A DNA stretch of 64,000 nucleotides from Steroidobacteraceae bacterium (GCA_035567075.1 DATMRC010000112.1:5805-69804), one strand, 5' to 3'. Shown: positions 44,450-62,418, counted from the stretch's first letter. Translations and numbers: made by a program. Notes: generated by a model not told the origin, from the sequence alone.

Positions 44450-45250
44450 ATGAACGCTATTCACGCCGCCAAGCGGAGCATTACGCGGGGTCTTTACGCT
44501 CTCGTGCGCGCCTTCGCACCTGTGGCCTACGCACAGGACGGTCTGATCAGCGTGCATTCGCATGCCTTCATGAACGACCCTGCCTTCCTCAAGGCGTACT
44601 CGCGTGGTGTGAAGGCACTGGGCGGGTCCGACGCGTACCGGTGGCACTGGCGGATCCACATCGGCCTTTGGGCGGCCAGGGTGGCATCGCGGCTAGAAGG
44701 CGATTTCGTGGAGTGCGGCGTCAACAAGGGGTTCCTCAGCAGCGCCATCATGGAATACCTCGACTGGAATTCGCGTGACCGAGATTTCTATCTGCTCGAC
44801 ACCTATGCCGGCCTCGATGAGCGGTACACGTCCAACGCCGAGCGCAAGGCGGGTGCATTGCAAAAGAACGCGGAGAATCTTCGCAGCGGCTTCTATGTCG
44901 CACGGGTTGATGAGGTTCGCGCCAATTTCGCGCAGTGGCCGCGCGCGCGCATCGTAGTGGGGGCTATCCCCGAGACCCTTGAACAAGTCACGGCGAAGCG
45001 CATCGCCTACCTGCATATCGATATGAACTGCGCTCCGCCGGAGGTTGCGGCCCTCGAGTATTTCTGGGAGCGGCTCGTCGCCGGCGCGCCGGTGCTCCTC
45101 GATGACTATGCTTATCTGGGTTATAACGAACAGAAACTGGCGATGGATGACTTCGCGCAGGGCCACGGAGTGACCGTCTGCTCGCTGCCAACCGGTCAGG
45201 GATTGATCATCAAGCCCGCCCAATCGATCAGCCCTGAGCGCAAACCGTAA
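44450..45250 (+). CDS. TylF/MycF-type class I SAM-dependent (sugar) O-methyltransferase
   Basis: 266 aa. GDFVECGVNKG and IAYLHIDMNCAPPE resemble the SAM and metal-binding motifs of macrocin-O-methyltransferase-family enzymes. Divergent from the pilin promoter. Confidence 0.75.
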   Translation: MNAIHAAKRSITRGLYALVRAFAPVAYAQDGLISVHSHAFMNDPAFLKAYSRGVKALGGSDAYRWHWRIHIGLWAARVASRLEGDFVECGVNKGFLSSAIMEYLDWNSRDRDFYLLDTYAGLDERYTSNAERKAGALQKNAENLRSGFYVARVDEVRANFAQWPRARIVVGAIPETLEQVTAKRIAYLHIDMNCAPPEVAALEYFWERLVAGAPVLLDDYAYLGYNEQKLAMDDFAQGHGVTVCSLPTGQGLIIKPAQSISPERKP

Positions 45251-45407
45251 CCCGCGCCGCGGAGCCGAAGAGCGCTGATCGACGGTCTCCCGCTGCAGCC
45301 CGCAATTTGGGAACTGAGAGAAGCCAACGAGATTTCTTGCGCGCGGCGCTGTATAGGGTTTGGTTCGCTGGACGTAAACGCGAAGCAAACAGCAGAAGAT
45401 AGTCCAC

Positions 45408-60676: not shown

Positions 60677-60705
60677 TGGTATATCTGATGTGTAAACATG
60701 TAATT

Positions 60706-62418
60706 ATGACGGAAACCAGGGCCATCGGTCAGCGCGTCATTTGGGCGGGGATGGTGCTCTCGGTGATGTGCCTTGCATATTTTTATATGCTCGATCACAT
60801 CTTGTTCTTCAGCGTGGGCTTTTCGCCGATTTTCCGATTTCTACTGATGCCGGACCTGAAGGCGGCATGGATATCTGTGGCGATATGCTGCCTGGCTGCG
60901 TTGTGGAATCGGCCGGCGCCGGTATTGCGGCTTGTAGAGGTTCTGGAAGAACGCGCGGTTTGGGTGGCCGTGGCGAGCATCGCACTATTCGCGCTCGGGG
61001 CCGTCGCCGTCTACCACAACTACCCGCTGTCCATGGACGAATACGCAGCTGTGTTTCAAGCGAAGATATTCGCTGCCGGGCATCTTTCCGCGCAGCTGCC
61101 GCCAAGCTACATCGATTGGCTCGTGGTGCGCGGCTTCAACGGCGAATTTCTCGTCGCGTCGCCCGAAACCGGCAGGGTCATTGAAGAATATTGGCCCGGG
61201 TTTGCCCTGCTGCTGGCGCCCTTCGAATATCTTCAGGCGCAGTGGCTGTGCAATGCCTGCCTCGCTGGGCTGGCATTGCTGCTCATGCATCGGATAACCA
61301 AGGAGATCACACATGAACGCCTGGCCGCGGGATGGGCATTGCTGTTCGCGCTGGCCTCCGCTGCCTTCGCAGCGAACGCCATTTCATACTATTCGTTGCA
61401 GTCGCATCTGACTGCGAATCTGCTTTTCGCAGCGCTGCTGCAGCGGCCGAATGGGTACCGGGCATTCTGCGCGGGTCTCACGGGTTCGCTGGCCCTGATC
61501 CTGCACAATCCGCTTCCGCACACGCTGTTCGCAATTCCATGGCTGCTTGCCATGGTGCTCGACCGCGGGCAGCGGCGTCTTTGCCTGCCATTGATTCTCG
61601 GCTATCTGCCGGGAATCGGTTTTGGATTGGGGTGGCTGTGGTTGCGGGCCGATATCGGATCCGCGGGCCAAACACTGTCCGGCACAAGCGGTCTGGTCCA
61701 CGGCGTTTTTACCTGGCCAACGCTAGCCGTACTCAATACGCGTGCAGCTTCCTTCGTAAAAATGTGGGTGTGGGCGGTGCCCTGCCTGTTCGTATTCGCA
61801 ATCATTGGCTGCATTCGCTACCGCGAAAACTCCAAGGTGCGCCTGCTGACGGCTTCCGCGGTCCTTACATTCCTGGGATATCTATTTGTCACCTTCGATC
61901 AAGGGCACGGCTGGGGCTATCGTTATTTTCATTCAGCTTGGGGGGTGATCCCGATCCTGGCTGGCTGTGCAATGACCAATAGACCAGTCGCGAATCCAAA
62001 AACTGCTTCGTTTGCGGGGGCGTGTGCGATTTTGAGCCTGGTGATCATGGTTCCATTCCAATTGAACGAGATCCAGCAGTTCATTTCCCAGCACTTGGCG
62101 CAACTCGGTGCTCCGAAGCGCCCGGGCAACAATGTCTACTTCATTCGCCCGAGGCGTGGTTTCTATGTGGCGGACATGGTGCAGATGGACCCTTATTTGA
62201 GGGATGCCGACTTATACCTCGCCAGCCGCGGAGGGGAGCTGGACGAGAAGATGGTACTCACGAATTGGCCCGCCGCCCGGCGGGTAAGCACCGGCCCCGC
62301 TTACGAACAATGGTACTTGGGTCCTTCGGATCAGCGCCGCGCGAGGCCCGGCGAGCGCTACCCGCGATTCGAGTTGATTGCCGAAGCTGCTACTCCTCCC
62401 AGCGCTGCGGATCGCTGA
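60706..62418 (+). CDS. Polytopic GT-C-type glycosyltransferase candidate (PMT_2/ArnT-like)
   Basis: About 570 aa. The first extracytoplasmic loop carries YPLSMDEYAAVFQAKIFAAGHL, resembling the DE-x-x-Y motif of GT39/GT83 enzymes, and 10 or more TM segments follow. Start uncertain (60688, 60706 or 60751). The listed start 60463 lies inside the divergent gene. Confidence 0.6.
   Translation: MTETRAIGQRVIWAGMVLSVMCLAYFYMLDHILFFSVGFSPIFRFLLMPDLKAAWISVAICCLAALWNRPAPVLRLVEVLEERAVWVAVASIALFALGAVAVYHNYPLSMDEYAAVFQAKIFAAGHLSAQLPPSYIDWLVVRGFNGEFLVASPETGRVIEEYWPGFALLLAPFEYLQAQWLCNACLAGLALLLMHRITKEITHERLAAGWALLFALASAAFAANAISYYSLQSHLTANLLFAALLQRPNGYRAFCAGLTGSLALILHNPLPHTLFAIPWLLAMVLDRGQRRLCLPLILGYLPGIGFGLGWLWLRADIGSAGQTLSGTSGLVHGVFTWPTLAVLNTRAASFVKMWVWAVPCLFVFAIIGCIRYRENSKVRLLTASAVLTFLGYLFVTFDQGHGWGYRYFHSAWGVIPILAGCAMTNRPVANPKTASFAGACAILSLVIMVPFQLNEIQQFISQHLAQLGAPKRPGNNVYFIRPRRGFYVADMVQMDPYLRDADLYLASRGGELDEKMVLTNWPAARRVSTGPAYEQWYLGPSDQRRARPGERYPRFELIAEAATPPSAADR

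Follow-up and report, generated by a model that had tools for sequence, protein, structure and literature searches.

To our knowledge, the enzymes that glycosylate type IV pilins are of two types only, the PglL/TfpO-type oligosaccharyltransferases and a single GT-C enzyme, TfpW. TfpW is encoded beside pilA, uses a lipid-linked D-arabinofuranose donor and is assisted by a GtrA-like protein or ArnE/F (bioRxiv 10.1101/2020.04.19.049825). Glycosylation of the pilin protects against pilus-specific phages (PMC11841053). Here we analysed, with open reading frame (ORF) calls and Pfam searches, a stretch of 64,000 nt from a gammaproteobacterium of the Steroidobacteraceae (Steroidobacteraceae bacterium, GCA_035567075.1 DATMRC010000112.1:5805-69804; the window, with positions counted from its first letter), in which an island of putative glycan-modification genes lies within the type IV pilus cluster. 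The reading that we favour, with moderate confidence, is that the island represents one allele of a hypervariable periplasmic system, composed of a lipid-sugar synthase, a flippase and GT-C transferases, that would glycosylate the pilin and would work like TfpW.

Between the major pilin gene pilA1 and pilS we found 13 ORFs, among which pilR is the sole pilus gene. The ORFs were numbered g01 to g13 from the pilA1 side to pilS, pilR being the ninth. The pilus cluster is ordered pilS, g13(+), g12, g11, g10(+), pilR, g08, g07, g06, g05, g04, g03, g02(+), g01(+), pilA1, pilA2, pilB, pilC and pilD, with all unmarked genes on the minus strand. An earlier reading of this DNA, made from the sequence alone (the sequence-only reading), had described these 13 genes with pilR as the lone pilus gene, and its inventory, coordinates, strands and domain calls agree with our ORF calls and Pfam searches. 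It had also noted that pilS and pilR are split; indeed, 6.15 kb separate the start of pilR from the stop of pilS, with four genes on both strands inside.

The island shares several features with the TfpW system of Pseudomonas aeruginosa group IV (PA7, Pa5196). In both, the locus of the major pilin contains a gene for a polytopic GT-C enzyme with an acidic motif in its first periplasmic loop, which in g13 is the invariant D111-E112. The small flippase-like helper of TfpW (the GtrA-like PsPA7_6247, or ArnE/F) has a candidate counterpart in g03. As in P. aeruginosa, the donor would be a lipid-phosphate-linked monosaccharide made in the cytoplasm, Ser/Thr of the pilin would be glycosylated in the periplasm, and the modification is proposed to serve in defence against pilus-specific phages. 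The two systems differ in that three unrelated GT-C-like proteins are encoded here, whereas there is one in P. aeruginosa. The tfpW gene lies immediately downstream of pilA, whereas pilA1 is followed by a terminator, pilA2 and pilB. TfpW carries a C-terminal periplasmic TPR domain; the GT-C-like proteins of the island have none, and TPR repeats are found only in g08. The DprE1/DprE2 and phosphoribosyl pyrophosphate-transferase genes for D-arabinofuranose are missing as well (Pfam detected no FAD_binding_4/DprE-like or phosphoribosyltransferase domain in the island), and a GT2-type lipid-sugar synthase and a flavoprotein resembling UDP-galactopyranose mutase (UGM) are encoded instead, together with extra methyl-, acyl- and sulfotransferases. 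We predict that the island functions like TfpW combined with a Gtr/Arn three-component system; membership of the TfpW family is not established.

In composition, the island also resembles the GtrA/GtrB/GtrC, ArnC/ArnEF/ArnT and GT136 pentofuranose systems (Kelly et al. 2024; PMC11127046), with g07 as synthase, g03 as candidate flippase and g13 and g06 as GT-C transferases. The targets of these systems are O antigen, lipid A or teichoic acids, and their genes are found in lipopolysaccharide (LPS) loci or prophages, whereas the island is embedded in a pilus cluster and encodes several GT-C proteins and tailoring enzymes, next to a flippase of weak assignment. With the pilin-accessory cassettes (TfpO/PilO, TfpX/Y/Z and those of Xanthomonas vesicatoria) it has in common that strain- or species-specific accessory genes travel with pilin alleles in the pil cluster. 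Unlike in those cassettes, no Wzy_C/PglL-type oligosaccharyltransferase is encoded, and the genes lie between pilA, pilR and pilS and not downstream of pilA. The nearest published observation comes from X. vesicatoria BNM 214/216, where an EamA transporter, two glycosyltransferases and hypothetical proteins, all uncharacterised, are encoded beside the pilin gene (PMC10333488). Full-text literature searches returned no description of the gene combination seen here.

The pil locus in related genomes

We compared the surroundings of pilR in 80 genomes, each representing one species and nearly all from Steroidobacteraceae, and probed them with the window proteins (L-numbers are the labels of the compared loci). 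The best PilR match was 87% identical and was found in Steroidobacteraceae metagenome-assembled genomes (MAGs). The default order in the family is pilS-pilR-pilA-pilB-pilC-pilD. The sequence-only reading had taken adjacency of pilS and pilR as the norm, and this applies to 67 of the 76 related species, in which the gap between both genes is at most 150 bp. Similarly, pilR is at most 400 bp away from the next pil gene in 37 of 53 loci.

A minority of the loci carry shuffled and highly diverged modules of the island gene families. Ten loci have more than 1.7 kb between pilR and pilA (3.8-9.4 kb), and all ten hold homologues of island genes in this gap. Island-type genes are also present between pilS and pilR in L001, L002 and L011 as well as on the 634-kb contig of L081, and a g07+g06 pair is located upstream of pilS in L033 and L053. 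The modules that recur are g12+g11 (often directly upstream of pilA), g07+g13, g07+g06 and the TPR-sulfotransferase. Identity to the closest relatives, L001 and L011, is 42-78% for the island proteins, compared to 91-94% for PilB and 87% for PilR; the conserved flank of the cluster, formed by pilD, pilC and pilB (38745..42690), shows 72-94% identity in the closest relatives. In a metagenome scan, a g12 subfamily only ~28% identical to g12 was found in the arrangement pilR...GT2TM-g13-g12(-g12')-FAD-pilA-pilBCD in ~17 loci with enough flanking sequence.

Cultured species differ as well. Steroidobacter gossypii S1-65 (L052) has another cassette, located between pilR and a pair of pilA genes (11092-19582 of that locus) and encoding a GT2 enzyme, a methyltransferase, a 622-aa protein of no assigned family, a PMT_2-type GT-C protein and two further such proteins of 406 and 674 aa. 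In contrast, S. flavus CGMCC 1.10759 (L079) has no cassette in its pil locus. In L103-L105 and similar loci a stretch of ~2.1 kb lies between a g11-like flavin adenine dinucleotide (FAD) protein gene and pilA; since it is matched by no window protein, it is probably a further cassette gene.

Since the same gene families fill three slots of the pil cluster across species, without signatures of mobility, the island is best described from these comparisons as one allele of a family-wide hypervariable locus, a hot spot for cassette replacement, and not as a single insertion. The insertion that the sequence-only reading had proposed to test for is corrected accordingly, and the split of pilS and pilR recurs in L001, L002, L011 and L081. 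A mobile element was considered and rejected: no tRNA is located at the island, no integrase or transposase domain was detected by Pfam in any island ORF, and no flanking repeats surround the island apart from the tandem duplication of pilA. The sequence-only reading, which had seen no integrase, transposase, tRNA or flanking direct repeat by eye, was correct on this point. Its statement that the GC content is well below that of core genes was overstated. A deficit exists, as the GC content at third codon positions (GC3) is 0.62-0.75 in the island genes compared to 0.70-0.83 in the remaining window, but with a difference of ~0.07 it is modest, and pilA, pilB and pilC share the low GC3 values.

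As the source is a MAG, the separation of pilS from pilR might have arisen by misassembly, for instance in a chimeric contig. We consider this hardly conceivable. The order g06-g07-g08-pilR-g10-g11-g12-g13-pilS-sucCD is the same in five assemblies obtained independently from separate JGI and ENA samples, which rules out misassembly as the cause of the split, and genes are likewise present between pilS and pilR in the relatives L001, L002, L011 and L081. Gene calls in the other assemblies give a PilR of 444 aa and a PilS of 536 aa, with sucC/sucD next to pilS. Identical copies of the g06 and g13 proteins have been deposited as 'MAG TPA: Steroidobacteraceae bacterium' under the locus tags VNZ02_17690 and VNZ02_17725.

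Predicted transferases, donor-synthesis and tailoring enzymes

Three polytopic proteins are candidates for the transfer step. The first, g13 (60706-62418, plus strand; 570 aa), was modelled with AlphaFold2 (AF2) from 65 homologues with a predicted local distance difference test (pLDDT) score of 75 and a predicted template modelling (pTM) score of 0.79. A Foldseek search of this model against the PDB gave ArnT (5f15) as top match (E 4.6e-5, probability 1.0, TM-score 0.46-0.48), followed by ALG12, STT3, AftA, ALG9, DPY19, Emb and Pmt4. An M110-D111-E112-Y113 motif is invariant. According to the model, g13 has a GT-C fold, from which we infer the use of a lipid-linked monosaccharide donor.

The second protein, g06 (49501-51576, minus strand; 691 aa), has no Pfam match itself. 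Among its homologues of 60-80% identity, 14 of 61 match GT87 (best 1.3e-6) and one of 61 matches PMT_2. Invariant residues are D54 and D74 as well as C543, C578, C608 and C673, the latter four in a Cys-rich C-terminal domain. Through these homologues g06 is a candidate GT87-like GT-C enzyme. A loose proline motif resembling that of Emb/TfpW was dismissed, as it sits in the wrong loop.

The third protein, g12 (58793-60676, minus strand; 627 aa), belongs to an uncurated family of 2288 clusters at the 50% identity level in a library of 1.84 billion representatives. It has no Pfam, NCBIfam or PDB sequence match, and when Pfam was run on 66 diverse relatives, one weak PMT_2 match and nothing else was obtained. 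The AF2 model (pLDDT 79, pTM 0.81) matches ArnT, EmbB, ALG12 and AftB weakly (probability 0.63-0.85, TM-score at most 0.35, E above 0.1). The layout fits GT-C proteins, with ~11-13 helices, a first loop carrying invariant Asp and a C-terminal domain with a Cys pair; in 66 members of 26-50% identity, these Asp residues (D37 and D56) and the Cys pair (C585/C620) never vary. From the model and these residues, g12 is probably a GT-C-like transferase.

The C-terminal domains of g12 and g13 were both modelled as small mixed alpha/beta domains. Profile-profile comparison detected no relatedness among g06, g12 and g13, and profile searches of PDB sequences with g06 and g12 gave noise only. The sequence-only reading had seen GT-C-like acidic first loops in two of the three polytopic proteins; membership of the GT-C class is supported for g13 by its fold and for g06 by way of its homologues, while g12 is only weakly GT-C-like. 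That reading had also reported the absence of a PglL/TfpO-type (Wzy_C) oligosaccharyltransferase, and in fact no Wzy_C/PglL-type domain was detected by Pfam in the island proteins or their homologues. The chemistry that it had proposed, polyprenyl-phosphate-monosaccharide donors combined with GT-C transferases, fits the matches of g07, the fold of g13 and the GT87 matches of the g06 homologues.

The donor would be supplied by g07 (51573-52781, minus strand), a GT2 enzyme (Pfam GT2 5e-24) with ~4 transmembrane (TM) segments at its C-terminus. Its NCBIfam matches are AglJ (2e-35), PpgS (6e-22) and Dol-P-hexose transferase (3e-19), and the nearest solved structures are DPMS, ArnC and GtrB. A product of the same length (402 aa) is encoded in other assemblies of the locus, and both it and its homologues carry PF26629 GT2_TM_C. 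Based on these matches we assign g07 as a predicted polyprenyl-phosphate sugar synthase. The candidate flippase for the lipid-linked sugar is g03 (47701-48072, minus strand), a 123-aa protein with four hydrophobic segments, which matches EamA with 26 bits (cut-off 28.2) and ArnE with 21 bits (cut-off 92), in addition to a weak match to ArnF; it recurs in L001, L011, L081 and L088. A second, soluble GT2 glycosyltransferase is encoded by g10 (56335-57123, plus strand; Pfam GT2 1.2e-11), divergently from pilR, and the g10(-)/pilR adjacency is the same in L001 and L081.

The FAD protein g11 (57175-58824, minus strand) belongs to NCBIfam NF005546 (PRK07208, named 'hypothetical protein') with 754 bits against a cut-off of 418; literature searches for PRK07208 returned nothing. 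The best matches among solved structures are UGMs of the eukaryotic type (4dsg 2e-12, 3ute 3e-9), which align in three separate segments including the C-terminal GR.G...Y..QDH segment, and g11 therefore resembles UGM at the sequence level. The earlier statement that nucleotide-sugar synthesis genes are absent is doubtful, because the nearest solved relatives of g11 are UGMs. Homologues of g11 are located directly upstream of pilA in ~15 other loci. The short contig of L083 carries, side by side at 582-4693, genes for a GtrA_DPMS_TM protein, an FAD protein similar to g11 and a protein similar to g06, so the UGM-like flavoprotein pairs with the GT87-like family too and not with g12 alone.

The remaining genes encode tailoring enzymes. 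In g08 (52883-54790, minus strand), TPR families are combined with Sulfotransfer_3 (PF13469, 2e-45), and similar genes recur in the pil loci L002, L007, L011, L037, L071, L081 and L082. This confirmed the TPR-sulfotransferase call of the sequence-only reading and refined it, as protein-tyrosine sulfotransferases (8w5z 1e-15, TPST1 3e-11), and not carbohydrate sulfotransferases, are the nearest solved relatives of the sulfotransferase domain; the TPR part is closest to OGT. A TylF-type (sugar) O-methyltransferase is encoded by g01 (44450-45250, plus strand; Pfam TylF 6.8e-15), divergently from pilA1, and no close homologue of it was found in the related pil loci. Both g04 (48076-48720) and g05 (48752-49504), on the minus strand, are class I S-adenosylmethionine-dependent methyltransferases (Pfam Methyltransf_23/12/25) with homologues in L001, L029 and L081. 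The AT3+SGNH membrane O-acyltransferase g02 (45408-47648, plus strand; Pfam Acyl_transf_3 9e-27, SGNH 9.5e-32) has ~10 hydrophobic segments.

Pilin and other candidate acceptors

In the scheme that we propose, the enzyme classes are given by the searches, and the individual steps and substrates are conjectural. At the cytoplasmic face, g07 would load a monosaccharide onto undecaprenyl phosphate. A nucleotide sugar in the furanose form may come from g11, and g10 may produce or elongate another lipid-linked donor, the second one. Before export, g01, g04 and g05 may methylate the sugar at the cytoplasmic face, and g08 may sulfate it, or alternatively a protein tyrosine. Once the lipid-linked sugar has been flipped to the periplasm, putatively by g03, the proteins g13, g06 and probably g12 would attach sugars to Ser/Thr in the exposed portion of PilA or extend them there, in the manner of TfpW in P. 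aeruginosa group IV. Finally, g02 may O-acylate the glycan.

The link to the pilin is based on several observations. Despite many rearrangements, the cassettes have not become separated from the pil genes, and they are interleaved with pilR and pilA. In addition, pilR (54904-56238, minus strand; Pfam Response_reg, Sigma54_activat and HTH_8), which encodes a sigma54-dependent response regulator, heads an array of seven genes on one strand that extends to g03, the other six being the putative glycan-modification genes. Within this array g07 and g06, and likewise g06 and g05, share 4 bp at their stop and start codons, and no strong terminator was found between pilR and g03. The array is probably co-transcribed with pilR, so that the modification genes would be coupled to pilus regulation. 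In L004, L005, L006 and L052, a GT2 gene follows pilR after 10-100 bp, and in L011 after ~200 bp. The transferase alleles are hypervariable, and their rapid turnover is what would be expected if phages or predators exert selection on a surface structure. Pilins from loci with GT-C genes contain slightly more Ser+Thr than those of the other loci, both in total (0.208 vs 0.181, p=0.004) and in the disulfide loop (0.277 vs 0.230, p=0.02), in comparisons that ignore kinship.

Several points weigh against pilin glycosylation. That the pilin is the acceptor is deduced from linkage, and the small excess of Ser/Thr in the pilins is confounded by how closely the species are related. Both g12 as a GT-C protein and g03 as a flippase are weak assignments, and the methyltransferases and the sulfotransferase are predicted to be cytoplasmic with putative substrates. 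Homology of the island proteins to TfpW could not be shown, the Pfam and NCBIfam searches gave no match of that name, and the island genes lie upstream of pilA and not in the usual accessory slot downstream. Where a lipid-sugar synthase, a flippase and a GT-C transferase form a system, its usual targets are O antigen, lipid A or teichoic acids rather than proteins. Furthermore, some loci with a distant member of the g12 family lack a pilin gene within 10 kb (L135, L161). In L135, from another soil lineage, a g12-family gene (9968-11884) adjoins lpxC-ftsZ-ftsA-ddl-murB-murC, with no pil gene within 10 kb; upstream of it three proteins without a Pfam match and a methyltransferase are encoded. 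In L161 (9968-15014), the g12-family gene is located beside genes for a PseB-like dehydratase and a NeuB-fusion protein of nonulosonic-acid synthesis, and these neighbours suggest that the g12 family can serve other glycan pathways.

These distant homologues, beside lpxC or nonulosonic-acid genes and away from pil genes, speak for the main rival explanation. On this view the island genes would act on a different glycan of the envelope (LPS core, O antigen, lipid A or exopolysaccharide) by periplasmic glycosylation of the ArnC/ArnEF/ArnT or GtrABC type, and the pil cluster would be a mere recombination hot spot in which such cassettes gather. The enzyme classes are compatible with this: ArnT is the best structural match of g13, g07 matches ArnC and GtrB, g03 resembles ArnE/F weakly, and AT3-SGNH enzymes are the classic O-antigen acetylases (OafA/OafB). 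In addition, the known synthase-flippase-GT-C systems act on glycans (PMC11127046). However, the cassettes keep to pil genes in three slots across dozens of species, including the subfamilies of ~28% identity, and are interleaved and co-oriented with pilR and pilA instead of lying at the edge of the cluster. Moreover, Pfam searches of the island proteins revealed neither Wzx, Wzy or WaaL nor ArnA, ArnB or ArnD. We judge modification of another envelope glycan to be possible, although on the unlikely side.

The genes might also constitute a general PMT-like O-glycosylation system for many periplasmic and surface proteins, with the pilin as one of its substrates or as the most abundant one. The GT-C fold of g13, which possesses a DE motif, also matches Pmt4, STT3 and DPY19, a PMT_2-type enzyme occupies the same slot in S. 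gossypii, three unrelated GT-C-like proteins could mean several acceptors, and the combination of TPR repeats with a TPST-like domain in g08 suggests a protein substrate. Housekeeping systems are normally conserved, though, and most species of the family are without these genes (pilR and pilA are adjacent in 37 of 53 loci), which argues against a general system; hypervariable alleles rather fit the dedicated modification of an exposed antigen. This explanation appears quite improbable to us.

Returning to glycosylation of the pilin, a more specific version would be a so far undescribed and fast-diversifying decoration system of the Steroidobacteraceae, in which g12, as a new GT-C-like family, together with the UGM-like g11 puts a furanose on the pilin, g08, guided by its TPR repeats, sulfates the glycan or a tyrosine of a pilus-related protein, and the modification genes are wired into the pilR unit with pilS uncoupled. 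We regard this combination of claims as doubtful. If it were true, sulfation by g08 would be the first sulfated modification of a pilus.

If the locus acts on the pilin, GT-C enzymes would be a widespread and highly diverse means of glycosylating pilins among abundant soil bacteria, and at least one unclassified GT-C-like family as well as methyl, acyl and possibly sulfate decorations would be added to the known repertoire. The pilus locus would then be a site of natural antigenic or phage-receptor diversification comparable to O-antigen loci. With a cassette in S. gossypii and none in S. flavus, two cultured species form a natural experimental pair in which the system is testable.

The pilA region, pilS and the flanks of the cluster

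The proposed acceptor is the major pilin encoded by pilA1 (43599-44120, minus strand; 173 aa, Pfam Pilin + N_methyl). Downstream of it lies its paralogue pilA2 (42923-43444, minus strand), which also encodes a major pilin of 173 aa with the same domains. Both are part of a tandem duplication (42793-44276) with a period of 676 bp, the copies of which share 82% identity over 300 nt. The stretch preceding pilA2 occurs again downstream of this gene (repeat family D3). An intrinsic terminator at 43541-43564 follows pilA1 only and is the single strong one in the region. A sigma54-type -24/-12 element, TGGCATAGCGCTTGC (44190..44204, minus strand), is located ~70 nt upstream of the pilA1 ATG and has one mismatch to the consensus TGGCAC-N5-TTGC. 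Window-wide, matches to the sigma54 consensus showed no excess over chance (83 compared to 89 expected), and we attach meaning only to the one that precedes pilA1, on account of its position.

The sensor kinase gene pilS (62390-64000, minus strand) is complete and encodes 536 aa with 6TM_PilS, HisKA and HATPase_c domains (Pfam); the last base of the window belongs to its TTG start codon. Compared to the canonical pilS-pilR operon, both proteins have the standard architecture (6TM_PilS, HisKA and HATPase_c in PilS; receiver, sigma54 AAA+ and HTH_8 in PilR), and pilA1 likewise has a sigma54-type promoter. In contrast to the canonical operon, 6.15 kb separate pilS from pilR, which heads the modification-gene array, and pilS and pilR cannot share a simple operon because the four intervening genes lie on both strands. 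The pair can thus be split with pilR at the head of a modification array, which bears on how pilus expression and decoration are coordinated.

The divergent intergenic regions are short, with 96 bp between pilR and g10 (56239-56334) and 29 bp between g12 and g13 (60677-60705), so that promoters must extend into the adjacent coding sequences. At 60703-60732, a sigma70-like match falls inside the first codons of g13.

On the other side of the island, pilA2 is followed by pilB (40945-42690; Pfam T2SSE), pilC (39701-40921; T2SSF) and pilD (38745-39662; Peptidase_A24), all on the minus strand. Beyond pilD we found coaE and zapD and later secA, lpxC, ftsZ and the remaining cell-division (dcw) cluster. 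Beyond pilS, other assemblies (L163-L165) contain sucC and sucD in divergent orientation, as in Xanthomonas-type pil loci. At the far end of the window, an RNase P RNA of class A (bacterial, 324 bits) is encoded at 9692-10065, just upstream of the dcw cluster, which spans ~10.3-28 kb and ends with ftsA, ftsZ and lpxC.

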